Shown piece after piece: positions 5,047 through 61,022 of a stretch of 64,000 nt of DNA. Positions within the stretch are counted from its first letter, which is position 1. Every line of letters begins with the position of its first letter. This DNA comes from Escherichia coli 042 (GTDB lineage Bacteria; Pseudomonadota; Gammaproteobacteria; Enterobacterales; Enterobacteriaceae). Under the pieces are notes generated by a model. The model did no database searches, had not been told where the DNA came from, and worked only from the letters and a program-made list of their open reading frames with translations. Location: the NCBI RefSeq assembly GCF_000027125.1, contig NC_017626.1; one strand, given 5' to 3'. The translations under genes were made by a program, and so were the position numbers.

Positions 5047-5436
5047 ACCTCCTCCCCGGCGACCTGCCCGCGGAGTTCCACCCCGGGGCTACCGCTCCCG
5101 ATACGCTGCCAATCAGTTAACACCAGGTCCTGGAGAAACCGCTTTTGTGGTGACCAACATCCGAGCGGCTCTATAGATAGTGTAGGAGATCAGGTTGTTT
5201 TTTTTCCAGAAGGTTAACCACTATCAATATATTCATGTCGAAAATTTGTTTATCTAACGGGTAAGCAAGGCGGATTGACGGATCATCCGGGTCGCTATAA
5301 GGTAAGGATGGTCTTAACACTGAATCTTTACGGCTGGGTTAGCCCCGCGCACGTAGTTCGCAGGACGCGGGTGACGTAACGGCACAAGAAACGCTAGCTG
5401 GCCAGTCATCGACAACTTTATGGAAGGAGTAACACT

Positions 5437-5871
5437 ATGGCTTATAAACACATTCTCATCGCGGTCGATCTCTCCCCGGAAAGCAAAGTTCTGGTAGAGA
5501 AAGCAGTCTCTATGGCTCGCCCCTACAATGCGAAAGTTTCTCTGATCCACGTAGATGTAAACTACTCTGACCTATACACCGGGCTTATTGATGTGAATCT
5601 GGGTGATATGCAGAAACGCATCTCTGAAGAGACACATCATGCGCTGACCGAGCTTTCCACTAATGCAGGCTACCCAATCACTGAAACCCTGAGCGGCAGC
5701 GGCGACCTGGGCCAGGTTCTGGTCGATGCAATCAAGAAATACGATATGGATTTGGTGGTTTGTGGTCACCACCAGGACTTCTGGAGCAAACTGATGTCTT
5801 CCGCACGTCAGCTGATCAACACCGTTCACGTTGATATGCTGATTGTTCCGCTGCGCGACGAAGAAGAATAA
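5437..5871 (+). CDS. uspA: universal stress protein A
   Basis: 144-aa [27 protein letters not shown]..., preceded by GGAGTAACACT. Confidence 0.97.
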
Positions 5872-20275: not shown

Positions 20276-21499
20276 ATGTCAATTGACTTTACCCCAGGTA
20301 TGATAAATACATATCACGGCGATATTTATAACCGCACAACAGATACCGACAATGTTAAAACACCAGACACACCGATGTGGCCTTGTGATAATCAGGAAGA
20401 ACAGCAGCCCATTAATTTTTCATTGTCTGAAGAAGGATATAACGCTGAACAATTTGATTTAGCGCAACAACAACTCCAACAAATTAATGCGTACCACACG
20501 AACACCACATATACAAATGCAGACTACTCAAAAATTGTGGCTCAAATTGTAAGTCTTATTAATAACATTGAAACGATAAGTTCGACACCACTTACGCAAC
20601 AGACACAATCAATACTTAATCAGATTAATAACATTAGATACGAAAAGAATAAAAATTCTGAATGTCGAATCATTGTTGTCGCTAATCCTAAACCCGACAA
20701 GGCAATCATAACTAAAATTAGCGTAGAAGAGGGAATACCAGTAAGATTCAGTGTCCAAACCATGTTTTCAGATACTAATTTTATTACTGAACAACGAGCT
20801 GACTTACCGACTAATATAAAAGATATTCAAAGCCTGTATCAAAAAATGACGAAGTTATATATTGAGCACAGTGAAAATAAAAACAGGATGAAAGTCTTTG
20901 CCGGAACCAACTTTATTGATTTCAATATGACAGGACAGAACCTGTCCGGGTTCGTTCTAACCTTGTCAAGGTTTTATTTCGAAGATCTACTTAATATAAA
21001 TTTCACTGACGCAAATTTAGGTGACGCTATTTTTTCACATAAAGAACACCCTACCCCAAAATTATATAAAGACGAACAATACCTTGACAAACAAATCGAA
21101 GGTTTATTTTCAACATTATTAACCATTAATGACAACTTTTTACGAGCAAAAGCGGAAATTGCTTCGACAATAATTAAATTCTTAGAGGCCAGGATAACCA
21201 ATATTTCATACAATGACATATTAAAATATCAGAAAGAATTCCAAAAGCAATGTTATAAGCAAGTTAAAGCCTTTACGACACTCTCCCGATACAATAAAAT
21301 TCAAACATGGGCAGAAATGTCTGAATATCAATTCGAAGTATTTCAATACGAGATGCTTAACCCCAAAAAAATGTCATACGCACCTTATTTAAAGAGATCG
21401 CTACCTGATGAAAAAACTATAAATTATGGGGTGGAAATAGAAACACCAACTGGCAAAAGAATTCGCTTATCAAATCATTACCAGAATATAATCCCATAA
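20276..21499 (+). CDS. yhiS: YhiS, uncharacterised AT-rich protein (intact here)
   Basis: 407-aa ORF between ars and slp, AT-rich. It has a Q/N-rich N-terminal third and a short pentapeptide-repeat-like stretch ([13 protein letters not shown]...[13 protein letters not shown]). Confidence 0.75.
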
Positions 21500-22993: not shown

Positions 22994-23053
22994 TCGATTG
23001 ATTAATATAAAGAGGCCCAGCAATAAATAGCCAGACCTCCCGTTAATTATACG

Positions 23054-24082
23054 TTATGCAGTAACGACTTCCGGTATCAGCGAAGCAATTTGCTTACGCC
23101 ATTGCGCTTGCTCCTGTTCGCCTTCTGTACGTTGACCATAAAGTTGCGCTATCTGCGTACCATCATGGGCAAACAATTCCAGACTGGTCACATAACCGTC
23201 ACTAGCAGGCTTACGGGTTACCCAGGTTTCAGCAATGCTCTCTTCTAATAGATGAAGAGTAAACGTCGGGTTAAAAATATTCAGCCAACCTTTCAGTGGC
23301 ACCACTTTTTCTACCACGCCAGTGAAAATCTGTACGCAGCCACGGTTGCCAACAAACACCATGATTTCATTACCATCCTGCTGTGCAGATTCAAGAATTT
23401 GCGCCAACGCACTGTTGGATACTTTGCAGGCCAAATCGTCTGCCACCAGATTGAACGCCTGTTGGCGCGTCAGGTTGTGGCGCTTGAGCAACGTAAAAAA
23501 CTGATGAACGTCGGTCATCGCCCGCCACTCTTGCTCGACCACACTGGCATCGGCTCGCATTTGAACGACTGGCGCATCAACGGCTTTTAACTCAAGCGGC
23601 GTATTCTCATCGGTGATAAACCGTGCCAGAAGCTCACTCCATGCCGCCATATCGGTATTGTCGGTGGCATAAACTTTTAGTAATGCATCGCCCTGATGAT
23701 CAAAGAACTGAATACTCTGGCGTTCGCCACGAGTCGTATTTTCTTTAATGTGAAAAACACTGGCCCATTGATTGAGAAACAGACGCAAATCCAGCGCGCG
23801 TGGATTGAGGATCAATCCGGCATGTCCGTTCAAATGCTGGTTTGTGAACGCACCAACTTGCTCATGGACTGCATATTCATTACGGCAAATACATTTGGTC
23901 TCGCCAACACTTTCGAGCGCCGCCAGAATGTCACGGATATCGCCGCACATCCGCCACGCATCGTGCGTGACGCGCGCAAATGCCAGTTCTGCTTCGCTAA
24001 TATTCATTAAACCTGCGATGTCACGCGCGTACTTTCCGGGATTTTGTTCTTTTAACTCAAGCCAGCGTGTGTAGTGGTTCAT
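23054..24082 (-). CDS. chuS: heme-degrading/heme oxygenase-like protein ChuS
   Basis: MNHYTRWLELKEQNPGKYARDIAGLMNI... The internal ATG gives 342 aa. Confidence 0.92.
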   Translation of the reverse strand: MNHYTRWLELKEQNPGKYARDIAGLMNISEAELAFARVTHDAWRMCGDIRDILAALESVGETKCICRNEYAVHEQVGAFTNQHLNGHAGLILNPRALDLRLFLNQWASVFHIKENTTRGERQSIQFFDHQGDALLKVYATDNTDMAAWSELLARFITDENTPLELKAVDAPVVQMRADASVVEQEWRAMTDVHQFFTLLKRHNLTRQQAFNLVADDLACKVSNSALAQILESAQQDGNEIMVFVGNRGCVQIFTGVVEKVVPLKGWLNIFNPTFTLHLLEESIAETWVTRKPASDGYVTSLELFAHDGTQIAQLYGQRTEGEQEQAQWRKQIASLIPEVVTA

Positions 24083-24102
24083 TGTCTCTCTTCCTTCCAT
24101 AT

Positions 24103-24125
24103 AAATGCCCCGAAATATCGGGGCA
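24103..24125 (-). terminator. intercistronic hairpin with T-tract between chuA and chuS
   Basis: On the minus strand, tgccccg-atattt-cggggca is followed by tttat. Confidence 0.5.
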
Positions 24126-24130
24126 GATGA

Positions 24131-26113
24131 TTACCATTGATAACTCACGAAAATTTTTCCATTACGACCATCCTGTGGGATGCCTTGTGGCGACCAGTAC
24201 TCTTTGTCGAAAGCGTTACCCAACACCAAAGTAGTGGTCATACCTTTGAGCGCCTGCTGCCCTTGATAACTGACGTAGAAATCATTCACGCCATAGCCTG
24301 GTTGTTTGCTGTAACTGCTGCTGATATGTGTTGAGCGATCGGCAAACGTACCAACCCACCCAACAGAGAAGCCACTGTGAGCGATCGGAATATTCAGGGT
24401 GCTGGTAACGGTATCCGGGTTAATACTGGAGATATATTCGCCGGTATCGGTGTCTTTGCCGCGGGTACGGTTATAGGCCACATCAAGGCTAAACAGATCA
24501 GTGGTATATTTCGTCATCACATCCCAACCCCAGATTTTGGCGTTCGGGACGTTATACGACATAGTTGTCGCCGCCGCGAAATCGACGGTCGTGGAGATGT
24601 AATCCTTCGCTTTGGTATCAAAGTAGCTGGCTTTAAATTCCAGAGCATCATTGGACAACATCAGATCATCAAAACGCAGCCCAAAACCGTACTCCTGAGT
24701 TTCGTTAGTTTCCGGACGTAAGTTCGGGTTTGGCACCCAATAGTTGGTATAGAAGCGACCAATCGAGAAGTGCTTAGAATCGTTATACATTTCGCCCATC
24801 GTCGGGGCGCGGAATGCCTGGGCATATGAGCCAAATAACATCAGCCAGTTAGCCGGGTTGATAGTCATCCCCGCGCGAGATGACCATTTGTCGGCATCAA
24901 CATCTTTGTAGCCGTCGCTGCTACCGCGATAACTGTCATAGCGGGTTCCGCCAAGCAGGGTAATCGGCAGATCGCGTAAGGTGATCTCATCCTGTAGCCA
25001 GCCGGAGCTAAAATCGATTTTTGCTTGCGGGAAGCCCGTCGTCGCGCCGCCCGGATGTTGTTCCTGACGATAATACTCACCGCCATATGTCAGTAAGTGA
25101 GAAGCGAAACTGTCGGCAAATAGAGTGGAACGGTTCTCCAGTTTGGCTCCTTTTGTTATCTGTTCACGATACTCGCCGGAACTCCCCGTGTTTTGCGCAT
25201 TAATACGGACTTCCGACCAGTAAATTTTTGCATCTGCATTTAACCAGTCGTTGCCCTGCGGGGCGAGTTTATAAGAAAGCTGCGCATCGCGTTGAATTGT
25301 TGAACGATCAACCATCGGGTTGCTGCTATCAGAAGCTTCAACGGTCTGCGGATTTTTTGGTTCACGCGCGTCGTTGTTGTAGTAACGCACTAAACCGCTC
25401 AGAGACTGGGCTGAATCAATTTGCCAGGTCCCTTTCGCCAGCATGTTATTAATGGACTCGTCATTCGGCGCGGTTTCACCATTGCTCTGGCGTAAATCAC
25501 CCCGATCGCGACTGGACCAGGCCACAATACCATCCAGATTTTCAGTTCGCCCAAACGCGCTCGCGCCTAATCCCAGGCTATGGTCCCCCGTGCCGCCAGT
25601 ACCAAAGACACGAAAACCACTACTTTGTCCTTCCTGCAATAAATCTTTTGCATCGACCGTATCGTAGGAGATCACCCCACCCAGCGCGCCACTGCCATAC
25701 AGTAATGCTGAAGGTCCGCGAACAATCTCAACACGCTTGATCAGCGCCGGATCAAGAAAAGTACCATTCAGGTGTCCGGTATCCGTTCCCTGGCGAACAC
25801 CATCGACAAGAACCAGCACGCCGCGATGATCATAGCCACGCATATTTACATCCTGACCGTTGGTTCGTCCGGTACCATCAAGAGTAATTCCAGGAACATG
25901 ACGCAGCAGATCGGTGGCTGAAGTAGCCGTTTGATTTTCAGGAGCGGAAGTGTCGATGACGCTGACCATCATAGGCGCTTCGAAGGAACTACGGGCATTC
26001 CCCGTTGCCGTAACGGTCATGGTTTCAGTAGCAAAAGCAAACGTTGGCAAGGTGGCAGAAACAGCCAAAGCCAACAAACTCAAACGCAACGAGGTAAATT
26101 GCGGACGTGACAT
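24131..26113 (-). CDS. chuA: TonB-dependent outer-membrane heme/hemoglobin receptor ChuA
   Basis: 660 aa with a signal peptide, a TonB-box-like ETMTVTA and a C-terminal ...FVSYQW beta-barrel terminus. Confidence 0.95.
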   Translation of the reverse strand: MSRPQFTSLRLSLLALAVSATLPTFAFATETMTVTATGNARSSFEAPMMVSVIDTSAPENQTATSATDLLRHVPGITLDGTGRTNGQDVNMRGYDHRGVLVLVDGVRQGTDTGHLNGTFLDPALIKRVEIVRGPSALLYGSGALGGVISYDTVDAKDLLQEGQSSGFRVFGTGGTGDHSLGLGASAFGRTENLDGIVAWSSRDRGDLRQSNGETAPNDESINNMLAKGTWQIDSAQSLSGLVRYYNNDAREPKNPQTVEASDSSNPMVDRSTIQRDAQLSYKLAPQGNDWLNADAKIYWSEVRINAQNTGSSGEYREQITKGAKLENRSTLFADSFASHLLTYGGEYYRQEQHPGGATTGFPQAKIDFSSGWLQDEITLRDLPITLLGGTRYDSYRGSSDGYKDVDADKWSSRAGMTINPANWLMLFGSYAQAFRAPTMGEMYNDSKHFSIGRFYTNYWVPNPNLRPETNETQEYGFGLRFDDLMLSNDALEFKASYFDTKAKDYISTTVDFAAATTMSYNVPNAKIWGWDVMTKYTTDLFSLDVAYNRTRGKDTDTGEYISSINPDTVTSTLNIPIAHSGFSVGWVGTFADRSTHISSSYSKQPGYGVNDFYVSYQGQQALKGMTTTLVLGNAFDKEYWSPQGIPQDGRNGKIFVSYQW

Positions 26114-26117
26114 AGCG

Positions 26118-26135
26118 ATTCTCCATGAGGAAAAT
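26118..26135 (-). promoter_or_regulatory. FourU-type hairpin occluding the chuA Shine-Dalgarno (RNA thermometer)
   Basis: The minus strand reads AUUUUCC-UCAU-GGAGAAU, so UUUU pairs with the GGAGA SD. The hairpin ends 4 nt before the ATG. Confidence 0.65.
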
Positions 26136-26402
26136 AAAAAATGCTGGCTGCCTGGGTTAATACCGGGGTGGCTGGCGAAAAATAAATTTATTTAAAATTC
26201 AGAGCGATAATATTCGCCGGGTGAGTTTACAGGCGTTTATATCCCATGAAATTGCCTGGTATCTCGGCAAATACGCAAAAGCACGCCCTCTTTGTCAGGC
26301 AAAACGATATGCCCCATCAGGAGTGAAGAGCGCTGTGCGTTACCCCTTGTAAATGATATGGCTTTGTTATCCATATGGCCGTATTTTGTTAAATGCAAAC
26401 GT

Positions 26403-26421
26403 GATAATGAGAATTATTATC
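26403..26421. promoter_or_regulatory. Fur box (chuA promoter)
   Basis: gataatgagaattattatc versus the consensus GATAATGATAATCATTATC. It lies ~290 nt upstream of the chuA ATG. Confidence 0.8.
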
Positions 26422-26754
26422 GATCAATTTTTTATGATCAAGCTTTTTTTTAACCGCCATTAACACAATAAACAGAGGGTTATGAAACTTATCCTGCGCC
26501 CTGGAAACCACTTTATTTTTATGGTTATTCCCCCATGACCTCATCACTAAACTTTGTCGTTAACAGTGATAATTTTCTCTTCGCTTTGCTCTGCAAGCCT
26601 CGATATCTCTGGGTTCTCAGCTTTTTCCCGCGCTGAAATTTAGTCGGTAACAAGAACGTTAGCTGACGAAGCATCTTGATAAAAATCAAAAATAAATACG
26701 CTTGTAACGCCTTGCGTATTGAATCGACGGTTGTATTTCATATATAACTCAAAT

Positions 26755-26773
26755 GATAATCATGATCATTCTC
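26755..26773. promoter_or_regulatory. Fur box (chuT promoter)
   Basis: gataatcatgatcattctc overlaps a GATAAT -10-like hexamer, with TTGTAT 18 bp upstream. Confidence 0.75.
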
Positions 26774-26796
26774 AATTTGATAAGAGTTCTCATATT

Positions 26797-27711
26797 ATGC
26801 CAAGGATCATCACCAGGCCGTTTCTTTTTTCCCCACTGACGTTATGTATTTCAGCCGTGGCCTCTGCTGCGAAGACCGCGGTAAAACGAAAAAAATTGTT
26901 TACGGCAGTACTGGCTCTTAGCTGGGCTTTTAGCGTAACGGCTGCCGAACGTATCGTGGTCGCAGGAGGATCGCTGACGGAGCTAATCTACGCGATGGGC
27001 GCTGGCGAACGCGTGGTTGGTGTCGATGAAACGACATCTTATCCACCAGAAACCGCCAAACTGCCGCATATTGGCTACTGGAAACAACTCAGCAGCGAAG
27101 GCATTTTGTCACTTCGCCCGGATAGCGTAATTACCTGGCAGGATGCCGGGCCACAAATTGTGCTCGACCAACTACGAGCGCAGAAAGTCAACGTCGTCAC
27201 CCTGCCGCGTGTGCCTGCCACCCTTGAGCAGATGTACGCCAACATTCGCCAACTGGCAAAAACGTTACAGGTTCCTGAACAAGGGGACGCGCTGGTGACA
27301 CAAATCAGCCAACGCCTGGAGCGAGTACAGCAAAACGTGGCGGCCAAAAAAGCCCCGGTTAAAGCCATGTTTATTCTCTCCGCAGGCGGAAGTGCGCCAC
27401 AGGTTGCCGGTAAAGGCAGCGTCGCGGACGCCATTCTTTCGCTTGCCGGAGCAGAAAACGTCGCTACCCACCAGCAGTACAAAAGCTACAGCGCGGAATC
27501 GCTGATTGCGGCTAACCCTGAAGTGATTGTCGTAACCTCACAAATGGTCGATGGCGATATTAATCGGCTACGTTCTATTGCCGGAATTACCCACACTGCC
27601 GCATGGAAAAACCAGCGCATTGTCACCGTTGATCAAAACCTGATTCTGGGAATGGGTCCGCGTATTGCTGATGTCGTTGAGTCTTTACACCAGCAGCTTT
27701 GGCCGCAATAA
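26797..27711 (+). CDS. chuT: periplasmic heme-binding protein ChuT
   Basis: Class III periplasmic-binding-protein-like sequence (ERIVVAGGSLTELIYAMGA...). The start is uncertain. The ATG at 26797 is chosen because the track start (TTG at 26719) lies upstream of the Fur box and promoter. Confidence 0.85.
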   Translation: MPRIITRPFLFSPLTLCISAVASAAKTAVKRKKLFTAVLALSWAFSVTAAERIVVAGGSLTELIYAMGAGERVVGVDETTSYPPETAKLPHIGYWKQLSSEGILSLRPDSVITWQDAGPQIVLDQLRAQKVNVVTLPRVPATLEQMYANIRQLAKTLQVPEQGDALVTQISQRLERVQQNVAAKKAPVKAMFILSAGGSAPQVAGKGSVADAILSLAGAENVATHQQYKSYSAESLIAANPEVIVVTSQMVDGDINRLRSIAGITHTAAWKNQRIVTVDQNLILGMGPRIADVVESLHQQLWPQ

Positions 27712-27730
27712 ATGGATTTAAATCAGACGA

Positions 27731-29068
27731 ATGAACACAAATAACACCCTGGATCTCACGCCACATTTTGCTTTAGACGGTGATCAGCCATTTAAAGACA
27801 GGCGCGCCATGATGCCGTTTCGTGGGGCCATTCCAGTTGCCAAAGAGCAACTGGCACAGACCTGGCAAGAGATGCTCAATCAAACGGTATCACCACGTAA
27901 GCGACTGGTTTATCTACACATTCCTTTTTGTGCAACACACTGCACGTTTTGTGGTTTTTATCAGAACCGTTTTAATGAAGATGCGTGTGCTCATTATACC
28001 GACGCCCTGATTCGTGAAATAGAAATGGAAGCGGACAGCGTATTGCATCAGTCAGCCCCCATCCACGCGGTCTATTTCGGTGGCGGCACGCCTTCCGCGC
28101 TTTCGGCACACGATTTGGCCAGAATTATCACCACATTACGAGAAAAGCTGCCACTGGCCCCTGATTGTGAAATCACTATCGAAGGCCGGGTACTGAATTT
28201 TGACGCTGAGCGAATCGATGCTTGCCTTGATGCAGGAGCAAACCGCTTCTCAATTGGTATTCAGTCGTTTAACAGCAAAATCCGCAAGAAAATGGCCCGC
28301 ACCTCGGATGGCCCAACCGCCATTGCGTTTATGGAAAGCCTGGTCAAACGCGACCGTGCAGCGGTGGTCTGTGACCTGCTGTTTGGCCTGCCGGGTCAGG
28401 ATGCGCAAACCTGGGGAGAAGATCTGACTATTGCCCGCGATATCGGTCTCGACGGCGTCGATCTCTATGCGCTCAATGTCCTGCCCAATACACCGCTGGG
28501 CAAAGCCGTGGAAAATGGGCGCACTACCGTGCCCTCTCCGGCAGAACGTCGCGATCTTTATCTGCAAGGGTGTGATTTTATGGACGATGCCGGTTGGCGC
28601 TGCATCAGTAACAGCCACTGGGGCCGTACCACACGCGAACGCAATCTCTATAACCTGCTGATAAAACAAGGTGCCGATTGTCTGGCCTTTGGTTCCGGAG
28701 CCGGCGGTTCGATTAATGGTTACTCCTGGATGAACGAACGCAATCTGCAGACCTGGCATGAATCCGTCGCGGCAGGCAAAAAACCGCTGATGATGATCAT
28801 GCGTAACGCCGAACGTAATGCGCAATGGCGTCATACCTTGCAGTCAGGTGTTGAAACAGCGCGTGTACCGCTGGATGAACTTACGCCACATGCCGAAAAA
28901 CTCGCGCCGTTACTGGCTCAATGGCACCAAAAAGGCTTAAGCCGCGATGCGTCAACTTGCCTGCGGCTGACTAATGAAGGTCGTTTCTGGGCAAGCAATA
29001 TTTTGCAGTCTCTTAATGAACTAATTCAGGTACTTAATGCGCCAGCGATTGTGCGTGAAAAACCATAA
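27731..29068 (+). CDS. chuW: radical-SAM heme-degrading methyltransferase ChuW (HemN-like)
   Basis: 445 aa with the CxxxCxxC cluster motif (FCATHCTFCGFY). Confidence 0.92.
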   Translation: MNTNNTLDLTPHFALDGDQPFKDRRAMMPFRGAIPVAKEQLAQTWQEMLNQTVSPRKRLVYLHIPFCATHCTFCGFYQNRFNEDACAHYTDALIREIEMEADSVLHQSAPIHAVYFGGGTPSALSAHDLARIITTLREKLPLAPDCEITIEGRVLNFDAERIDACLDAGANRFSIGIQSFNSKIRKKMARTSDGPTAIAFMESLVKRDRAAVVCDLLFGLPGQDAQTWGEDLTIARDIGLDGVDLYALNVLPNTPLGKAVENGRTTVPSPAERRDLYLQGCDFMDDAGWRCISNSHWGRTTRERNLYNLLIKQGADCLAFGSGAGGSINGYSWMNERNLQTWHESVAAGKKPLMMIMRNAERNAQWRHTLQSGVETARVPLDELTPHAEKLAPLLAQWHQKGLSRDASTCLRLTNEGRFWASNILQSLNELIQVLNAPAIVREKP

Positions 29069-29080
29069 CAGGAGTGATTT

Positions 29081-29575
29081 ATGAGCCATGTCTCGTTACA
29101 AGAATTTTTGAAAACGGAGCCGGACGGTACGCTGGAGGTGGTAGCCGAACAATACAACACCACACTGCTGGAAGTAGTGAAAAATCTGCCCTCCTCTACC
29201 ATAGTGTCAGGCGATAAATTCGATACTGTCTGGGATACCGTCTGCGAATGGGGCAACGTCACCACGTTAGTACATACTGCCGATGTCATCCTCGAATTTA
29301 GCGGCGAACTGCCTTCGGGTTTCCACCGCCACGGCTATTTCAACCTACGCGGAAAGCACGGCATGTCCGGGCATATCAAAGCAGAAAACTGCACACATAT
29401 TGCCTTGATCGGACGTAAATTTATGGGCATGGACACCGCATCCATTCTCTTTTTCAACAAAGAAGGCAGCGCAATGCTGAAAATCTTCCTCGGCAGGGAT
29501 GACCATCGTCAGCTCCTGAGCGAACAAGTCAGCGCCTTCCATGCTCTGGCAGCATCGTTAAAGGAACACGCCTGA
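29081..29575 (+). CDS. chuX: heme-binding protein ChuX
   Basis: 164 aa. Identified by its position in the chu operon and recognised sequence. Confidence 0.88.
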   Translation: MSHVSLQEFLKTEPDGTLEVVAEQYNTTLLEVVKNLPSSTIVSGDKFDTVWDTVCEWGNVTTLVHTADVILEFSGELPSGFHRHGYFNLRGKHGMSGHIKAENCTHIALIGRKFMGMDTASILFFNKEGSAMLKIFLGRDDHRQLLSEQVSAFHALAASLKEHA

Positions 29576-30198
29576 TGACGCCGTGGCTACTCTTTGGCGC
29601 AGGCGGAAAAGGTATGGGTGCCAGAACGCTTGAACTGGCGCTGGCGGAACAACGTCCGGTCGTTGCTGTCGTTCGTCATGCCGATGCCGCTACGAAACTG
29701 GCGCAACAAGGCGTACAGGTTTTTACAGGCGACGCCTGTGATGCCAGCGTAGTCGCGAATGCTTGCCGCGCAGCTGGCCCGGATGCGCTTATCATCTCAA
29801 CAATGGGCGGAGCTCAGGATTATCTGGCGCACAGAACAGTGATTGATGAGGCCGAAAAGGCCGGCATCAGTCGCATGATTCTGGTGACCTCTTTGGGATG
29901 CGGCGATAGCTGGCCGTTTTTATCGGAGCGGGCAAAGGCTGCGTTTGGTCAGGCGGTACGGGAAAAAACGCTGGCGGAAAGCTGGTTGCAAACCAGCCAG
30001 CTTGATTACGCCATTCTCCGCCCTGGCGGTCTGCTTGATGGGGCGGCAACGGGCAAAGCACAACGGATACAAAATCAGGAGTGTCATGGTTTTGTTCACC
30101 GTGCCGATGTCGCCGCACATATCCATGAACTGGCAAATGCGCCAGCACTTAACCAGCAGGTCTACAGTCTGATTGAACCGGACCTGAAACCGGCGTGA
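29575..30198 (+). CDS. chuY: NAD(P)H-dependent reductase ChuY (anaerobilin reductase)
   Basis: 207 aa with a Rossmann-like N-terminus (LFGAGGKGMGA). Its start overlaps the chuX stop (TGATG). Confidence 0.88.
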   Translation: MTPWLLFGAGGKGMGARTLELALAEQRPVVAVVRHADAATKLAQQGVQVFTGDACDASVVANACRAAGPDALIISTMGGAQDYLAHRTVIDEAEKAGISRMILVTSLGCGDSWPFLSERAKAAFGQAVREKTLAESWLQTSQLDYAILRPGGLLDGAATGKAQRIQNQECHGFVHRADVAAHIHELANAPALNQQVYSLIEPDLKPA

Positions 30199-30246
30199 TA
30201 CCCCGGCGCGGCATGTCCGCGCCGTAATGTCGTAACGGAGTTTTGC

Positions 30247-31239
30247 GTGCTCAAGGATTCACTCTCTTCCGCCAGGGTCTTTATGGGGCTATCACTATTA
30301 TTGCTAGCTCTGGTGCTGTTCGGTGCCAGTCAGGGAGCGTTAAAGATCAGTTTTGATGCCCTTTTTGATGAGGAATACCGCGATATTTGGCTCAATATTC
30401 GTCTACCACGGGTTTTGTTGGCGGTGCTGGTAGGTGCAGCGTTGGCAACCGCAGGGGTAATTATGCAGGGGCTTTTTCGCAACCCAATGGCTGACCCTGG
30501 ATTACTCGGCGTCAGTAGCGGTTCTGCATTAATGGTTGGCGTTGCTATTGTACTGCCCTTTTCGTTCCCCGTGGTGCTGGTGCTTTATGAACAAATGGTG
30601 TTTGCCATCGCCGGAAGTTTAGTGGTCTGCACCATCATTTTTCTCATCACGCAGCGCCATCGCGATGGCAGCATGATGCAATTGTTACTCGCCGGTATCG
30701 CCATCAATGCCCTGTGCGGCGCAGCGATCGGCATCCTGAGCTATATCGGCGATGAGCAACAGCTACGACAACTCACGTTGTGGATGATGGGCAATCTCGG
30801 TCAGGCGCAATGGCCAACGTTATTGGTTGCCAGTTCCTTCATTCTGCCCGCCATTATGGCAACAACGTGTCTCGCCGGAACGCTGAATTTGCTGCAGCTC
30901 GGTGATGAAGAAGCCCATTACCTCGGCGTGAACGTAAAGCGTAAACGCCAGCAATTACTGTTAGTGAGCTCACTGCTCGTTGGTGCCGCCGTATCGGTAA
31001 GCGGCATTATCGGCTTTATTGGCCTGGTGATCCCGCATCTGATTCGTATGACTACCGGGGCAAATCACCGCTGGCTAATCCCTTGCTCCGCCCTCGCCGG
31101 AGCCTGTTTATTGCTGATGGCAGACACGCTTGCCCGCACGCTGGTACAGCCAGCAGAAATGCCCGTGGGATTATTAACCAGCCTGCTTGGCGGTCCTTAT
31201 TTTATGTGGTTGATTCTGCGCAACCGGAGGATCACATGA
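30247..31239 (+). CDS. chuU: heme ABC transporter permease ChuU (FecCD family)
   Basis: 330-aa polytopic ORF with a GTG start. Confidence 0.9.
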
Positions 31240-32006
31240 TCAGCGCCCAGAATCTGGTTTATAGCCTTCAGGGGCGGCGTCTGACTGACAATGTCTCGCT
31301 GACTTTTCCCGGTGGGGAAATTGTTGCCATTCTCGGCCCTAATGGTGCGGGAAAATCTACGCTGCTTCGCCAGTTAACCGGCTATCTTCAACCTGATAGC
31401 GGCGAATGTCGGTTGTTTAATAAGCCATTAAATGAATGGTCGATTACTGAACTGGCGAAACACCGGGCCGTGATGCGTCAAAATAGCCACATGGCGTTTC
31501 CATTCAGCGTACAAGAAGTTATCCAGATGGGGCGGCATCCGCATCGTACTGGTAATCAGGATAATGAAACAGCACAAATAATGGCGTTATGTGACTGTCA
31601 GGCGTTAGCAAACCGCGACTATCGGCAATTATCCGGTGGTGAACAACAGCGCGTGCAATTAGCGCGCCTGCTGGTGCAACTCTGGGAACCTACTCCCTCA
31701 CCGAAATGGTTATTTCTTGATGAGCCAACTTCGGCGCTGGATATTCACCATCAGCAGCACTTGTTCCGTTTATTACGCCAGTTAGTTCACGAACGGCAGT
31801 TCAATGTTTGCTGCGTATTGCACGATCTAAATCTTGCCGCGCGTTATGCAGACCGTGTTGTATTAATGCAAAAAGGAAAGGTTATCGCAAATGGTAAACC
31901 TCAGGACGTATTGACACAGCAGGCGCTGACAATGCTCTACGGCGCGGATATTACCGTACTTAAAGATCCTGCCAACCATTCACCACTGATCGTCCTCGAT
32001 CATTAA
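31236..32006 (+). CDS. chuV: heme ABC transporter ATPase ChuV/HmuV
   Basis: [16 protein letters not shown]... with Walker [10 protein letters not shown], the LSGGEQQR signature and Walker [12 protein letters not shown]. The ATG at 31236 overlaps the chuU stop (ATGA). Confidence 0.93.
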
Positions 32007-32012
32007 AAGCAA

Positions 32013-32037
32013 CAGGAGTACCGCACTGGTACTCCTG
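32013..32037. terminator. hairpin between convergent chuV and yhiD
   Basis: 10-bp perfect stem caggagtacc-gcact-ggtactcctg. Confidence 0.6.
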
Positions 32038-32057
32038 CGAATAAATAACTATACAGA

Positions 32058-32705
32058 TTAGCTAATTGAAACGCCTTTCACCCCTGCCATACCTTTTAAT
32101 AATCGCAACAGATCTTCTATCGACGTTGTGGCATGAAGCTGGATATCAATGGCGACCACTTCATGATCTTCATTTTCCTGCAACGAAACTAAATCAGTTT
32201 TTATTTTTTGCTGCTTAAACCAGTCGAGCATTGACACCGTATTACCGTTCACTAATGTCAGCTGTAAATGGTAATTTTTGTTCATCAGGCGGAAGGTTAA
32301 TTGATGGAAGACTTCCAGCACCAGTAAGGTCATCACTGAACCATAAATGCCCAGTTCGTACATACCGCTACCAATAACCATACCAATGGCGGCGGTCACC
32401 CAGATATCCGCTGCCGTCGTCAGACCTACAATATTTTGGTTACGAACGAGAATGTTACCTGCACCGATAAACCCGACGCCCGTCACCACCTGAGCAGCAA
32501 TACGGCTGGGGTCCAGTCCGACGTGATCTAAAGACAGCACGTCAGCAAAACCATATTTCGAAACAATCATAAACAGGGCGCTTCCCATGCCAATTAATAC
32601 ATGTGTGCGTAACCCTGCTCCTTTGCCGCGCATTTGCCTTTCCATGCCAATAGCGCCACAGGCAATTGCTGCGAGTATAAGACGTATAATAAATTCTGCT
32701 GTCAT
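32058..32705 (-). CDS. yhiD: MgtC-family inner-membrane protein YhiD
   Basis: MTAEFIIRLILAAIACGAIGMERQ... The internal ATG gives 215 aa. Confidence 0.92.
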   Translation of the reverse strand: MTAEFIIRLILAAIACGAIGMERQMRGKGAGLRTHVLIGMGSALFMIVSKYGFADVLSLDHVGLDPSRIAAQVVTGVGFIGAGNILVRNQNIVGLTTAADIWVTAAIGMVIGSGMYELGIYGSVMTLLVLEVFHQLTFRLMNKNYHLQLTLVNGNTVSMLDWFKQQKIKTDLVSLQENEDHEVVAIDIQLHATTSIEDLLRLLKGMAGVKGVSIS

Positions 32706-46354: not shown

Positions 46355-48034
<1,680 letters not shown>

Positions 48035-56192: not shown

Positions 56193-57122
56193 ATGTCCAA
56201 AAAGATTGCCGTGATTGGCGAATGCATGATTGAGCTTTCCGAGAAAGGCGCGGACGTTAAGCGCGGTTTCGGCGGCGATACCCTGAACACCTCCGTCTAT
56301 ATCGCCCGTCAGGTCGATCCTGCGGCATTAACCGTTCATTACGTAACGGCGCTGGGAACGGACAGTTTTAGCCAGCAAATGCTGGACGCCTGGCACGGCG
56401 AGAACGTTGATACTTCCCTGACCCAACGGATGGAAAACCGTCTTCCGGGCCTTTACTACATTGAAACCGACAGCACCGGCGAACGTACGTTCTACTACTG
56501 GCGTAACGAAGCCGCCGCCAAATTCTGGCTGGAGAGCGAGCAGTCTGCGGCGATTTGCGAAGAGCTGGCGAATTTCGATTATCTCTACCTGAGCGGGATT
56601 AGCCTGGCGATCTTAAGCCCGACCAGCCGCGAGAAACTGCTTTCTTTGTTGCGCGAATGCCGCGCCAACGGCGGAAAAGTAATTTTCGACAATAACTATC
56701 GTCCGCGCCTGTGGGCCAGCAAAGAAGAGACACAGCAGGTGTACCAGCAAATGCTGGAATGCACGGATATCGCCTTCCTGACGCTGGACGACGAAGACGC
56801 GCTATGGGGTCAACAGCCGGTGGAAGACGTCATTGCGCGCACCCATAACGCGGGCGTGAAAGAAGTGGTGGTGAAACGCGGGGCGGATTCTTGCCTGGTG
56901 TCCATTGCTGGCGAAGGGTTAGTGGATGTTCCGGCGGTGAAACTGCCGAAAGAAAAAGTGATCGATACCACCGCAGCTGGCGACTCTTTCAGTGCCGGTT
57001 ATCTGGCGGTACGTTTGACGGGCGGCAGTGCGGAAAACGCGGCGAAACGCGGGCACCTGACCGCAAGTACCGTTATTCAGTATCGCGGCGCGATTATCCC
57101 GCGTGAGGCAATGCCGGAATAA
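56193..57122 (+). CDS. kdgK: 2-dehydro-3-deoxygluconokinase (PfkB family)
   Basis: MSKKIAVIGECMIELSEKGADVKRGFGGDTLNTSVY..., 309 aa from the ATG at 56193, with the DTTAAGDSF motif. The track ORF is over-extended into pdeH. Confidence 0.95.
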   Translation: MSKKIAVIGECMIELSEKGADVKRGFGGDTLNTSVYIARQVDPAALTVHYVTALGTDSFSQQMLDAWHGENVDTSLTQRMENRLPGLYYIETDSTGERTFYYWRNEAAAKFWLESEQSAAICEELANFDYLYLSGISLAILSPTSREKLLSLLRECRANGGKVIFDNNYRPRLWASKEETQQVYQQMLECTDIAFLTLDDEDALWGQQPVEDVIARTHNAGVKEVVVKRGADSCLVSIAGEGLVDVPAVKLPKEKVIDTTAAGDSFSAGYLAVRLTGGSAENAAKRGHLTASTVIQYRGAIIPREAMPE

Positions 57123-57678
57123 TGGTTTTTGACGGAGAACGGGTAGATATTCGTTCTCCGTTAATCGCCTTGCAGGGGTGAACCGAACTATGCTGATAAT
57201 TTGAAGTAAACTGCTGACGCATATCATTCAAACTACGCGTAAATTTAAGCGGGTTCTCACCTTTAATTTCGACCGTGACGAAGACATTCCCATTGTTGTT
57301 AAAGAAGCCAAAATAATAGTCATGTTGATGACGACGATTGGTTTTAAATTGACGAAATGATAAATAGCAGCGGTTATCGTAGGTAATTAAAAAATCATTT
57401 TCTCCGTATTCGTTTATCATCTTATTTTTCAGGCTACCATCGAAGAGCACTGCATACTTATCTTTGTCAGCAAATAATTCGGCATCAGTTTCTCGGTTGA
57501 TCGTGTTGACGCTGATACCGAATTCTATTTTTACCTTGTCTTTATCGATATTATTTCTTGTGCTGACATACATATTATTGGCATCCCAGAGTAAGAGAAA
57601 GTTTTTGTTGCAGGAATAAAGACCTGTTAAGCAAAGAATGACTGTTAGCAAGAATAGTATGCGTTTTTTGTTACGCAT
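57094..57678 (-). CDS. island ORF E: secreted or lipoprotein-like protein of unknown function, with a 3' end running into core DNA
   Basis: 194 aa with signal peptide MRNKKRILFLLTVILCLTGLYSC and SD AGGAG 5 nt before the ATG. The last ~24 codons lie outside the repeat-bounded insert and overlap the kdgK 3' end by 29 nt. Confidence 0.6.
   Translation of the reverse strand: MRNKKRILFLLTVILCLTGLYSCNKNFLLLWDANNMYVSTRNNIDKDKVKIEFGISVNTINRETDAELFADKDKYAVLFDGSLKNKMINEYGENDFLITYDNRCYLSFRQFKTNRRHQHDYYFGFFNNNGNVFVTVEIKGENPLKFTRSLNDMRQQFTSNYQHSSVHPCKAINGERISTRSPSKTIIPALPHAG
57132..57161. terminator. hairpin immediately after kdgK
   Basis: 10-bp perfect stem acggagaacg-(10 nt)-cgttctccgt. Its last 4 nt overlap the left copy of the 9-bp direct repeat. 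Confidence 0.6.
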
Positions 57679-57739
57679 TTATACTCCTGAAAATGCGTTG
57701 AGGTCGCAAATATAATTAAATAGTCTGACATAAATAAAA

Positions 57740-58060
57740 TTAATTCCCTATCAATAATACATCTGCGACTTTTCTTGGTCCTTCGTAGATCTCAAATGCC
57801 TCGTACTTAGTCATCCATTGTTCAGGGGCGGTATCGAAAAGGAACTGAACGCACCCCATTGAAACGATACGTCCATCGGTTACATTAGGTTTTTCCAATT
57901 CAAAAACAACGCTCCATGCATTATTTTGCCAGTCAGTTTTCTCCTCTGGAAACCTGGAGACGGGATAATATCTACCGATAGGAGGTGCGCTCCTTCTGCC
58001 ACCTTCATTTTCTGTAAGCCAAACAACCTTTACACGATACATATGTTTCCATTCATTCAT
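57740..58060 (-). CDS. island ORF D: stand-alone EF-Tu domain III-like beta-barrel protein
   Basis: 106 aa. H-MYRVKVVWLTENEGGRRS...GRYYP...FEIYEGPRKVADVLLIGN aligns with EF-Tu [20 protein letters not shown]...GYRP...[20 protein letters not shown]. The start lies 3 nt after the ORF C stop. Confidence 0.7.
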   Translation of the reverse strand: MNEWKHMYRVKVVWLTENEGGRRSAPPIGRYYPVSRFPEEKTDWQNNAWSVVFELEKPNVTDGRIVSMGCVQFLFDTAPEQWMTKYEAFEIYEGPRKVADVLLIGN

Positions 58061-58063
58061 TAA

Positions 58064-58543
58064 TTAAATTAAGTGTGAATTATATAATATTGCCACCCCA
58101 TGCGATCTTTCCCATTTTAGTCCATCAACTAATAATGATAGAAAAGAATACTGGAAGCTTATATTTTTAATCACTTCTATTTTTTCATCATCTAATGACA
58201 AGATTACCCACCCCCCGTAATTTTTGCTAACCAGGTTGTTAATAAATTTAATTATAGGATTGGTTGAAATATCCTTTCCTTTATTCACAGCCATTTCCAG
58301 GTCATCGACTAAAGAACCATTGAAGTTGTAAACATGATATTCATTAAAGTCTATGTGCTCATCTAAAGGTGGGCCATAAGTAATCGGTAGATTGCATCTC
58401 TGCAAAAGATGATGATTACACCAGGCGTATACCGGAGGGTCGCGATGAAAGGTTTCCCCACCCCAGTGAACCATAACCTCTTGTAGATCTAGTTCCTCTG
58501 GAGCGAATCGTGTAGGGAGTAAAATATCCAAGTGAAAATCCAT
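58064..58543 (-). CDS. island ORF C: hypothetical protein (159 aa)
   Basis: AT-rich ORF with SD-like AGGATAGG before the ATG. It is coupled to ORF D. I recognise no motif. Confidence 0.6.
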   Translation of the reverse strand: MDFHLDILLPTRFAPEELDLQEVMVHWGGETFHRDPPVYAWCNHHLLQRCNLPITYGPPLDEHIDFNEYHVYNFNGSLVDDLEMAVNKGKDISTNPIIKFINNLVSKNYGGWVILSLDDEKIEVIKNISFQYSFLSLLVDGLKWERSHGVAILYNSHLI

Positions 58544-58642
58544 AGCCTATCCTAAATTTGGCACCCATAACATAAACTGTGTAAGAATCAACGACTGCCC
58601 CCCCAAAAATGGGAAAATTTACTTATTATGCAAAGTTACTTA

Positions 58643-58897
58643 TTAAGAAGCCCATTCCTCATTTTTTGGCAAATAGCCCTTTCGCCAACAGGTCAGAATC
58701 TTAAAACTCGCTCGCAAATAAAATTTATTAGCCGAATCGTTTTTAACCATTCTGACTAATGTCATCTCACCCGTTCTTTTATCTATCACGAACTCGCCGT
58801 AATCAGATCTACAATAGTCAGAAGATGTAGGTCCAAATTCATATTTTACTACTTTATCAGTTTCTTCAATTTTCAATATTTCTATATGATAGGCCAT
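58643..58897 (-). CDS. island ORF B: hypothetical small protein (84 aa)
   Basis: Its start overlaps the ORF A stop (TAATG). I recognise no motif. Confidence 0.6.
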   Translation of the reverse strand: MAYHIEILKIEETDKVVKYEFGPTSSDYCRSDYGEFVIDKRTGEMTLVRMVKNDSANKFYLRASFKILTCWRKGYLPKNEEWAS

Positions 58898-59322
58898 TAT
58901 TTAACACCATCTATTGCCTGGCATCGTATACAGCTAAAACCAGTAGCTAAAATCTCAACATAACTATCATAACCTGCTATAATATAATGTTTTAACTTTA
59001 ACCGTTTTTTAGGGTCATATAATCTCTCTTTTTCTTCAAGCGGTACAGAATTCATTACTTGATATATACCGGAGTCCAGATTTTCACCATCAACCTTCTT
59101 AATAACAATATTGTTATAGTTGGCTTCATGAAAATTGACGGTAGCACACTTAACTTCAGCAACTGTAGTGAAGACCAGTTCAATTTGAACATAATCTTTC
59201 TCTGTTGATATTAACTCCAGAGCATCTACTTTAATGTTGACGCCATCAGACTCTGTATATGTTAAAGATAAATAAGTTGTGGAAATCCTGAATCCAATCG
59301 ATTGTGATTTTAACACAAGCAT
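58897..59322 (-). CDS. island ORF A: hypothetical protein (141 aa)
   Basis: The ATG at 59322 lies 7 nt after GGAAGGAG. The track's GTG start at 59346 is less likely. The predicted pattern is beta-rich, and I recognise no motif. Confidence 0.6.
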   Translation of the reverse strand: MLVLKSQSIGFRISTTYLSLTYTESDGVNIKVDALELISTEKDYVQIELVFTTVAEVKCATVNFHEANYNNIVIKKVDGENLDSGIYQVMNSVPLEEKERLYDPKKRLKLKHYIIAGYDSYVEILATGFSCIRCQAIDGVK

Positions 59323-59489
59323 AAACTCACTCCTTCCAGTAGGCACAGGTATAATTTATTCAGCTAATAAATAATTAAACCCACTCTACGGTAAGTTTAT
59401 TTTAATAATGAATGGTTATCTGCGCGCTACCGCCGTGCCCGGAAAAATATCTGCGGTTATATCACGGTAACTAATTTATTACCGTTAAT

Positions 59490-59518
59490 CCCGGCAGCGC
59501 AGAAGAAACGCTGCCGGG
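59490..59518. terminator. bidirectional terminator hairpin downstream of yhjJ
   Basis: 10-bp perfect stem cccggcagcg-(9 nt)-cgctgccggg followed by ttatttatt on the + strand. It starts at the last base of the right direct-repeat copy. Confidence 0.75.
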
Positions 59519-59525
59519 TTATTTA

Positions 59526-61022
59526 TTACTGTGCGGGGGGAATATCCGTCACTTCAGGATGTACGTCATCCGTGGCGACAGAGGTGGTCGCAGCGGCGGT
59601 AGATGGGGTCATGATTTGATCCCAGGCCGCCTGCAACGCTTTCATGTTAAATTCCGGCTCGCCTTTCGGCTGCAGAAGTATTAACGCCATATCATTCGAC
59701 AACTGCTGACGCAGATCCTGATTTAACATCTCCACCGTCAGGCTGTTAAGGAAGTCCTGGCGCAGTTTCTGATATTGCTCCGGCGCGATATCAACGACCT
59801 GATTTTGCAACGAACGCATCCGCTGACCCATCAGAATATCGGTATCAGCTCGCGCATAGGCGGCAAACAGTTTCTGCAGCTCCAGTTTCTTTTGCGCCAC
59901 TAACGCATTGAACTCTTCTTCCGGCAGACCTTTATCGCGAACCTTCGCCAGTTCACGCGCCACCAGATTAAGGTTGCTGCTCAGCTTGTCGTTTGGTGAT
60001 TCGATGTTAATGGCACACTGCGCACGCAGATACAGCACACGACAGTCAAATCCAAGACCGATATCTTTGCTGTTACTGGCGCTTAACGCTTGCTGAACAT
60101 GCCAGAACAGCGCCTCACGGGCCAGGTCCGCACGCCAGTAGCGCAGCAGTGCGGCTGATTCACGAATCGGCTGCCACGGCGTATCCCACATGATTGATAA
60201 CCGGTCCTGACGCACCGCGTCAGTCATAATACTCACCGCTTCCGCACGCAGCGGAGAAAGCGTCGGCACCGGAGCCGGTGTTTCACGTTTGCCTTTCAGT
60301 TCGCCAAACGTTTTATTGATTTGGTCGACGACCGAGCGCGCATCCACGTTTCCCACCACCAGCAGCGTCATTGCATCCGGGGTATACCATTTCTGATAGA
60401 AATCTTTAATCTTTTCCGCTTCAACGGGTTGTTTCAGCGGATCGGCAGGATCGTGACCTAACAAGGTTGATCCTTTCAGACGATAGCGCCACCAGCCCTC
60501 TTTAGTATCGGCAGGCCAGGTTGCCACCATGTCCTGACTTTGCAGCGCGTGGTTGATGGTTTCTGGCGTGATAGTCAGTTTGCCAGTGGCATTTGCCAGA
60601 TAAGAGAGCGCTTCTTTCAGCAAGTCGTTACGGTTATTGGGCAAACTCAGATTAAACAGCGTGGTGTCATAAGAGACAATTACCGGCGGCATCGGGCGTT
60701 TAGGGTCGATCCCCTGCTGCCACAATGAACGCGCCTGTGCTGCTTCAAGGCCACCGCTTTGCGTTAACGCAATACGAGGGATGGCGTGGCTGTAACCGCT
60801 CTGTTGTGTACTTTCGGCGAGCGAACCGGTATTAACCAGCAGGCGAATTTCAACACGATCGCTGGGACGCTGGGGTGTGGTCAGCACTTGCCACTGTAAA
60901 CCGTTGGAAAGCGTCCCCTGTTGCCATGCTGGATCAGGCTGGAGCGCATCTGCCTGCACATAGCCAGCAGTGGCCATCATCAGCAAACCGCCCGCTAAAA
61001 GTCGAATTTTTGTGCCCTGCAT
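59526..61022 (-). CDS. yhjJ: periplasmic M16-family (pitrilysin-like) peptidase homologue YhjJ
   Basis: 498 aa with signal peptide MQGTKIRLLAGGLLMMATAGYVQA. Confidence 0.92.
   Translation of the reverse strand: MQGTKIRLLAGGLLMMATAGYVQADALQPDPAWQQGTLSNGLQWQVLTTPQRPSDRVEIRLLVNTGSLAESTQQSGYSHAIPRIALTQSGGLEAAQARSLWQQGIDPKRPMPPVIVSYDTTLFNLSLPNNRNDLLKEALSYLANATGKLTITPETINHALQSQDMVATWPADTKEGWWRYRLKGSTLLGHDPADPLKQPVEAEKIKDFYQKWYTPDAMTLLVVGNVDARSVVDQINKTFGELKGKRETPAPVPTLSPLRAEAVSIMTDAVRQDRLSIMWDTPWQPIRESAALLRYWRADLAREALFWHVQQALSASNSKDIGLGFDCRVLYLRAQCAINIESPNDKLSSNLNLVARELAKVRDKGLPEEEFNALVAQKKLELQKLFAAYARADTDILMGQRMRSLQNQVVDIAPEQYQKLRQDFLNSLTVEMLNQDLRQQLSNDMALILLQPKGEPEFNMKALQAAWDQIMTPSTAAATTSVATDDVHPEVTDIPPAQ

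Follow-up and report, generated by a model that had tools for sequence, protein, structure and literature searches.

The junction between the convergent genes kdgK and yhjJ of Escherichia coli 042 was analyzed within a stretch of 64,000 nucleotides (nt) of its chromosome (NC_017626.1), which is called the window throughout. Between these two genes the window contains an accessory islet of 2408 bp (57117..59524, no strand assigned), the extent of which was defined by alignment with the empty site of K-12. According to the list of open reading frames (ORFs) of the window, it comprises five co-directional genes on the minus strand, named A to E. The islet is probably an array of orphan immunity genes that is devoid of toxin genes and is directed against toxins injected by rival bacteria. 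This reading is favored because of the genomic contexts in which relatives of A, B and D occur, and because a variant of the islet carries the immunity gene TriTu. An earlier note on this DNA, made from the sequence alone, had named orphan immunity as one of two possible explanations. For A, B and D this is supported by the two lines of evidence just mentioned, but not for C and E, neither of which was found in the cognate position after a toxin C-terminal domain and for neither of which evidence for an immunity role was obtained.

For two of the genes, B and D, homologues were found directly 3' of the C-terminal domain of a polymorphic toxin. Gene B (58643-58897, minus strand) encodes a protein of 84 amino acids (aa), which is a predicted immunity protein for an unclassified family of Rhs C-terminal toxins. 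An exhaustive phmmer search revealed 68 cluster representatives of the family, most of them about 79 aa long. In Xenorhabdus griffiniae, a homologue with 42% identity starts 6 nt past an orphan Rhs C-terminal toxin (Rhs-CT) ORF. This ORF begins with LNPYGYVHNPAKWVDPYGL, which is a hallmark of the end of the Rhs core, and the core end is followed by a toxin domain of about 135 aa (L027 9590-9994). A metagenomic homologue with 43% identity starts, again, 6 nt past a toxin gene, which in this case encodes a full-length SpvB-TcdB-RHS protein of 2438 aa. The two toxin domains linked to B share 57% identity (E 3e-44). Judged from gene order, the B homologues are in the classic arrangement of a toxin and its cognate immunity gene.

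In X. griffiniae (CP133647.1, loci L027 and L028, about 3.67-3.70 Mb) the orphan Rhs-CT and the B-like immunity gene are part of a unit of about 6.65 kb, which is present in at least three tandem copies downstream of an Rhs gene. The unit also encodes a helix-turn-helix regulator, a SymE-like toxin, a 904-aa primase (DnaG/Toprim) and a tyrosine integrase. The unit has the appearance of an integrative element with an Rhs toxin/immunity cassette as cargo, which it would also amplify.

Gene D lies on the minus strand at 57740-58060 (106 aa) or at 57740-58042 (100 aa); the shorter version, with the start at 58042, is backed by the homologues and by the NCBI Prokaryotic Genome Annotation Pipeline (PGAP). 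It encodes a predicted immunity protein with a predicted beta-barrel similar to domain 3 of EF-Tu. Homologues with 57-70% identity were found in orphan arrays downstream of Rhs genes of type VI secretion systems (T6SS) in Citrobacter, in Serratia and on the contigs L067 and L068. The Citrobacter homologue (L014, 70% identity) is located in an orphan array behind VgrG-DUF2169-PAAR-Rhs, together with a TreTu fragment, TriTu, a Tox-HNH fragment, Imm50 and SUKH genes. Upstream of it, at a distance of 22 nt, there is an orphan Rhs-CT, the ORF of which reads RPYGYVHNPLSWIDPLGL and, continuing, KVLYRSMSLDEY. The same arrangement of orphan Rhs-CT and D is present on L068, where the D homologue has 60% identity, and the gaps at these two loci are 20-22 nt. 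The D-linked toxin domains of L014 (9661-9978) and L068 (1281-1598) are 68% identical (E 1e-54) and belong to a family of about 105 aa, whose cognate partner D is predicted to be. In Serratia marcescens and on L067, D is part of arrays behind PAAR-Rhs-RNase/Barstar, and on L067 it directly follows TriTu.

TriTu and D are neighbors in three independent contexts, i.e., on the metagenomic contig L007 (3315-3990), on L067 (8680-9300) and in Citrobacter L014 (8806-10303), and they are separated either by 57-77 nt or by one orphan toxin module. This neighborhood suggests that TriTu and D may travel together or serve related toxins.

Gene A (58897-59322, minus strand) encodes a predicted cytoplasmic immunity protein of 141 aa, which belongs to an uncatalogued family, and a strong Shine-Dalgarno sequence (GGAGTGAG) is located upstream of it. 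The family is small, with only 11 clusters among 5.8 billion proteins. A metagenome scan retrieved 20 relatives with 39-51% identity, which are encoded on contigs of low GC content. Their neighbors include SUKH-1 immunity genes (Pfam E 1.4e-20, 1.2e-21 and 1.9e-7). Relatives of A also occur after an orphan toxin cassette (...YGYVGDPNTWIDPFGL...), and a gene for a 2015-aa VgrG-RHS toxin is located two genes upstream of one of them. At two loci, a conserved peptide, VP[YF]D..PSH.V.DI..RPPS (E 2e-17), is encoded directly upstream of the A relative, on L061 in-frame with it, and this peptide may be the tail of the toxin cognate to A. The arrays and the upstream tail thus link A to toxins with weaker evidence than that for B and D.

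The TriTu-bearing variant was found on L007, a contig from a more distant enterobacterium (yhjJ with 82.5% nucleotide identity and a number of synonymous substitutions per site, dS, of 1.15). Its array is longer than the islet in the window and comprises ten genes. From yhjJ to kdgK these are A, B, a 150-aa gene with a weak match to SMI1/KNR4 (SUKH-1; E 7e-4, under the Pfam threshold), a 109-aa gene, TriTu (PF24689, E 2.8e-18), D, E, a 67-aa gene, a 105-aa gene (5185-5502) with a weak match to domain 3 of EF-Tu (PF03143, E 0.007, also under the Pfam threshold), and an 81-aa gene. Pairwise blastn revealed that the window and L007 have E plus D and B plus A in common, and that the C region in between (58087-58643) has no homology to L007. 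Instead of C, the longer variant contains the SUKH-like gene, the 109-aa gene and TriTu. With Citrobacter, the window has the D ORF alone in common. In another E. coli/Shigella lineage (L008-L011) a variant of A with 69% identity, A', is followed by a different small gene, which in L008 has a weak match to Imm63 (E 0.016) and, by eye, is similar to the 81-aa gene of L007. Further along, fragments of H-rpt/ISAs1 are present in the variants of this type; a search for the L008-type variant in complete E. coli genomes matched only insertion sequence elements. Thus, the arrays have a mosaic build, in which C is exchanged with three other genes and A' is paired with an Imm63-like gene. Because of this mosaic among the window, L007, Citrobacter and L008 variants, the kdgK-yhjJ junction is, as read from the sequence comparisons, a polymorphic site across Escherichia at which independent cassettes come and go.

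A comparison of the window with the L007 copy, which have about 82% nucleotide identity, yielded ratios of nonsynonymous to synonymous substitution rates (dN/dS) of 0.27 for A, 0.11 for B, 0.28 for D and 0.21 for E. By this measure, these four are real genes under purifying selection. The dS values of A, B and D were 0.27-0.46 and, thus, far below the value of 1.15 of the adjacent yhjJ, which suggests that the cassettes were exchanged after the divergence of the hosts.

According to the proposed mechanism, A, B and D, and by its position probably also C, would each be an independent cassette that encodes a small cytoplasmic protein. Each protein would bind and neutralize one family of C-terminal toxin domains, which competitors would deliver on Rhs/YD-repeat proteins by way of the T6SS or of related systems. 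Without having these toxins itself, a strain would, thus, survive an attack by strains or species that have them. The cassettes would have been acquired horizontally, with the orphan toxin/immunity arrays behind Rhs genes of other Enterobacterales as donors. At the kdgK-yhjJ junction they would have gathered beside gene E, which would be an older resident, and homologous recombination via the conserved flanks is the probable route. For the E. coli copies themselves, we infer expression, binding of toxins and protection of the cell.

Several results weigh against the islet being an immunity array. None of the five proteins had a match in Pfam, NCBIfam or PADLOC at E<=1, the C family consists of only four clusters, all of them in the same E. 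coli islet, and the structure model of A is of low confidence (predicted local distance difference test score, pLDDT, 63.6). The closest relative of A outside of E. coli with a named organism, in Paenibacillus, stands alone without a toxin gene in its vicinity, and the relatives of E in Bacteroidota (47-53% identity) are located among housekeeping or unrelated genes and not among toxins. No recognizable promoter was called on the coding strand upstream of A. The 166 islet copies that are at least 99% identical are probably clonal, so that by themselves they are no sign of selection. The divergent strain 2017-02-2CC has an islet copy of 97.7% identity in which frameshifts affect D as well as A at its 3' end, and the junction of E. 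ruysiae contains only a degraded E. Because of these frameshifts and the degradation of E, the islet genes are dispensable.

The near-identity of the copies, which is consistent with clonal inheritance, the frameshifts of D and A, the decay of E and the uncalled promoter would also fit an explanation that we regard as unlikely, namely a relic in decay. In that case a former Rhs element would have left its 3' tail behind, or the DNA would be some other horizontally acquired fragment, and either would be carried passively in one clonal lineage without any current function. In addition, the 3' end of E is a fusion product that reads into kdgK, the H-rpt/ISAs1 fragments of the L008-type variants are typical of Rhs elements, and AT-rich DNA like that of the islet is usually silenced by H-NS in E. 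coli. But all five reading frames of the window are intact, A has a strong ribosome-binding site, and dN/dS was 0.11-0.28 between copies that are about 82% identical and reside in different host species. Furthermore, patchy decay is to be expected also if the genes confer immunity, because orphan immunity genes are only intermittently useful. Given the frameshifts of the one lineage, passive decay of individual genes is a real possibility, but the purifying selection seen across hosts speaks against decay as the normal condition of the islet.

Gene E (57094-57678, minus strand, 194 aa) encodes a protein with a putative signal peptide and a lipobox-like N-terminus (LTGLYSC). In the N-terminus, MRNKKRILFLLTVILCLTGLYSC, a basic and a hydrophobic region as well as L-Y-S-C can be read from the sequence, and the Y at position -2 is atypical; the cysteine of the lipobox is missing in the homologue of a Bacteroidota metagenome-assembled genome (MAG). 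The native part of E is 57199-57678, and the frame continues through the left hairpin of the islet and 29 nt into kdgK. The last about 35 codons lack homology to other E proteins, and the alignment diverges past RQQ. E is the only gene common to all occupied variants of the junction, including those of E. ruysiae, Escherichia sp. MOD1-EC7003, which has E at the same junction, Escherichia sp. E1V33, which has E plus other cargo, and E. coli of the SMS-3-5 type. In Riemerella, the E relative is encoded between a thioredoxin gene and rpmA, and in the Bacteroidota MAG it adjoins NusG; the coordinates of the Bacteroidota relatives are L025 936-1487 and L026 8001-8549 (Riemerella anatipestifer). These similarities point to a transfer of an exported protein across phyla, which would fit the low GC content of the islet. 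From its N-terminus, E is an exported lipoprotein-like protein by prediction, and it may be a periplasmic immunity protein or unrelated to immunity.

Its presence in all occupied variants and its relatives among housekeeping genes in Riemerella and the Bacteroidota MAG could also mean that E is the functional core of the islet. In this case, E would be a lipoprotein that stems from Bacteroidota and functions in the envelope, not in toxin immunity but, e.g., in surface or stress physiology, and A to D would be incidental hitchhikers. We consider this very improbable: the toxin linkage of A, B and D would be left unexplained, and E itself is degraded in E. ruysiae. A separate role of E is, moreover, compatible with orphan immunity of the other genes and does not exclude it.

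Gene C (58064-58543, minus strand, 159 aa) is an ORFan cassette. It had no family match in Pfam, NCBIfam, PADLOC or PHROGs and no match in the Protein Data Bank (PDB), and no real similarity was found to the Citrobacter toxin fragment or to the SUKH-like protein of L007.

The second explanation in the earlier note, two toxin-antitoxin or abortive-infection modules (A-B and C-D) plus the envelope protein E, in which one gene of each pair would poison the cell upon phage infection or loss of its partner, was rejected because the pairs are not conserved, and we give it hardly any credence: the tight pairs (the TAATG overlap of A and B and the gap of 3-21 nt between C and D) and the small, AT-rich, accessory genes without families are in line with it, but in L008 the gene after A' is an unrelated, Imm63-like one, in all other genomes D has no C beside it and follows Rhs toxin domains or TriTu, homologues of B come after Rhs toxins with no A next to them, C is confined to this islet, and neither PADLOC matches at E<=1 nor phage matches were obtained.

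The fold of D is predicted to be like that of domain 3 of EF-Tu. The sequence and profile similarity to this domain (PF03143, GTP_EFTU_D3) was not significant (BLASTP E 0.017, hhalign E 0.12), and no match to the Pfam family was obtained; the motifs EGGR and FEIYEGPRKVA are collinear with EF-Tu domain 3. In contrast to EF-Tu, D is a stand-alone protein of 100 aa without a GTPase domain, and in its genomic contexts it takes the place of an immunity gene and not of a translation factor. It was unexpected that the immunity array of L007 contains two genes similar to EF-Tu domain 3, D and the 105-aa gene, between whose products no significant similarity was detected.

EF-Tu is bound by many T6SS toxins and toxins of contact-dependent inhibition (CDI) (bioRxiv 10.64898/2026.05.10.723254). 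The toxin TreTu ADP-ribosylates EF-Tu, its residues R6 and E12 bind NAD+ and are needed for toxicity, and TriTu is the TreTu immunity gene (PMC9825190). The N-terminus of the D-linked toxin, LYR(G/S)MSLDE(F/Y), has the same R-x5-E spacing as R6 and E12 of TreTu. A TreTu-like nature of the D-linked toxin was, thus, considered, but neither BLASTP, which aligned only the first 13 residues with TreTu (E 0.022), nor Pfam, in which the toxin including its LYR motif had no match, provided a link, and it is a hypothesis only. It is a tentative idea, and one that we would not expect to hold, that D and its relatives are an immunity family derived from or converged on EF-Tu domain 3. They would act as a decoy for the site at which the toxin docks to EF-Tu and would leave the active site unplugged. 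The repeated neighborhood of D and TriTu and the second EF-Tu-D3-like gene of L007 also bear on this idea. If true, mimicry of a target domain would be a general way to neutralize T6SS and CDI toxins that depend on EF-Tu.

The architecture of the islet is as the earlier note had described it, with five minus-strand ORFs, a TAATG overlap between the stop of A and the start of B, a gap of 99 nt between B and C and a gap of 61 nt between D and E. C and D are separated by 3 nt with the long D start (106 aa) and by 21 nt with the start that is supported by homologues (100 aa). The AT-richness, which had been judged by eye, was verified by computation, i.e., the GC content is 36.7% in the islet and 52% in each flank. 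Alignment to the empty K-12-type site revealed that the whole spacer of about 95 nt between kdgK and yhjJ is swapped for the islet. The left boundary is the last codon of kdgK (...MPA* in K-12, ...MPE* in the window), and on the right side homology restarts one base before the yhjJ stop.

The hairpins that had been proposed as strong terminators of the two core genes are both real, GC-rich structures. The left one follows the kdgK stop (57129..57164, plus strand, dG -26.9 kcal/mol, z -6.3), and the right one follows the yhjJ stop (59490..59518, minus strand, dG -24.2 kcal/mol, z -4.6). However, a U-tract is missing at both, neither was called by the terminator scan of the window, and both are absent from K-12 and are, thus, part of the inserted DNA rather than brackets of the core genome. 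The right hairpin is common to all islet variants, and pairwise blastn revealed that 59416-59650 is kept in the variants that contain only E. When the plus strand is read (59490-59530), a U-rich run (UUAUUUAUUACU) follows the yhjJ-side hairpin. The hairpin would be a better terminator for transcription towards yhjJ than for yhjJ itself, and no plus-strand gene ends there.

As had been noted before, the islet lacks an integrase, a transposase and a tRNA gene, and the respective scans also revealed no Rfam match and no flanking repeats. A repeat search for att-like or cassette boundaries yielded only short repeats at chance level. The rAID-1 class of the acquired interbacterial defense (AID) clusters of Bacteroidales is reportedly associated with a recombinase; the islet has neither the integrase, the tRNA and the flanking repeats nor the target duplication of a recombinase-associated AID cluster or an integrative element. 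Two matches in the plasmid collection PLSDB were to records that look chromosomal and are, thus, no evidence of mobility: NZ_CP141089.1 (4.94 Mb, E. coli) carries the kdgK-yhjJ islet, and NZ_CP081938.1 (101 kb, Riemerella) carries murA, miaA, rpmA and rplU.

The junction was surveyed in 5426 complete E. coli genomes. The short K-12-type spacer is present in 5220 of them, and in 5220 of 5422 genomes the flank query extends over 726 bp; the islet is, thus, accessory, and the short spacer that the earlier note had stated for K-12 is the common state. The five-gene islet occurs in 169-170 genomes (about 3%). All five genes are annotated as "hypothetical protein" by PGAP. The listed genomes with the islet are mostly from human isolates and some are from animals and wastewater. 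In about 28-30 genomes, e.g., in SMS-3-5, the junction contains an E-like gene and unrelated cargo. In SMS-3-5 (L038, NC_010498.1 3901795-3907437; also L023) the E-like gene encodes 176 aa with a C-terminus of its own and adjoins yhjJ, and it is followed by a convergent gene for a 680-aa hypothetical protein and then by a gene for a DUF3142 protein.

Searches with the islet genes in further libraries were negative. None of the five proteins belongs to a recognized immunity family (Imm*, SUKH, TriTu, CdiI), of which only TriTu was found, in a variant of the islet, L007. The TriTu family PF24689 of Pfam matches none of A to E and was found only in the related loci L007, L014, L016-L018 and L067. 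For A to E, the curated profile searches gave no match to known anti-phage defense in PADLOC-DB at E<=1 and nothing significant in PHROGs. Sequence searches of the PDB with B, C, E and the B-linked toxin yielded no match. tblastn with B against plasmids retrieved only a mislabeled E. coli chromosome, and tblastn with E retrieved nothing from phages and Riemerella records from the plasmid collection.

Toxin genes were not found either. The ORFs of the islet, all of which are accounted for, do not include one, and at the protein level the search did not extend to the remainder of the host genome. When the islet and the 64-kb window as a whole were translated in all six frames, neither motifs of the Rhs core end nor the VENN motif of CdiA were present. 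DNA encoding the D-linked toxin was not detected in the 5426 complete E. coli genomes, and tblastn revealed none in plasmids.

Elsewhere in the window, at about 23000-32100, the annotation of the identical strain Ecol_316 has a chu/shu heme-uptake cluster between dctR and yhiD in the acid-fitness region, with chuS, chuA, shuT, hutW, hutX, chuY, shuU and an ATPase gene. The cluster, which chuA-positive phylogroups are known to have as an accessory feature, has no connection with the islet. In Ecol_316, treF (about 46400-48030 of the window, by correspondence) and a hypothetical gene at about 20290-21400 are both annotated as frameshifted.

With these results, a testable function can be proposed for five "hypothetical proteins" of about 3% of the complete E. 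coli genomes. The analysis yielded three uncatalogued putative immunity families, A, B and D, each with a candidate partner toxin domain, and the toxin domains linked to B and D are conserved and match no Pfam family. Immunity cassettes would, thus, pile up at the kdgK-yhjJ junction, away from any toxin locus, and islets of this kind could shape the survival of strains under T6SS attack in the gut. The predicted EF-Tu-like fold of D offers a concrete test of immunity by mimicry of the cellular partner of a toxin.

The direct source of the islet cassettes would be the orphan toxin/immunity arrays of Rhs loci in Enterobacterales (Poole et al. 2011, PMC3150448; Koskiniemi et al. 2014, PMC3967940; Salmonella Rhs-main TreTu/TriTu, PMC9825190). 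Parts are shared with such arrays, i.e., D beside TriTu in Citrobacter and Serratia and B after the Xenorhabdus Rhs-CT; unlike them, the islet lacks an rhs gene, toxin fragments and Rhs core motifs. Immunity arrays without effectors are also known from the AID clusters of Bacteroidales (Ross et al., bioRxiv 10.1101/471110) and from Vibrio cholerae (PMC5361080), and they protect against the T6SS of other strains and species and spread horizontally. The AID clusters may be located on mobile elements and the V. cholerae arrays lie inside T6SS auxiliary clusters, whereas genes for a recombinase, for mobile elements or for a T6SS are all absent from the islet. The orphan immunity genes of Serratia are a further described example without toxins (PMC10539506).

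A close parallel in kind is an islet of Salmonella Typhi with putative T6SS/CDI immunity genes (Barretto and Fowler 2020, PMC7400221). It is described as chromosomal and lineage-restricted and as composed of small genes without toxins, like the islet described here, and it was read in silico as orphan immunity from homologues in the T6SS and CDI clusters of other bacteria. The two islets differ in locus, host and size (14 genes versus 5), and the evidence for the S. Typhi islet included conserved-domain analysis, while none of the five proteins here falls into a curated family. The earlier suggestion that the junction harbors an undescribed system goes too far. Toxin-less immunity islets, such as that of S. 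Typhi, are already described, and what is new here is the locus and the uncatalogued families rather than the kind of system.

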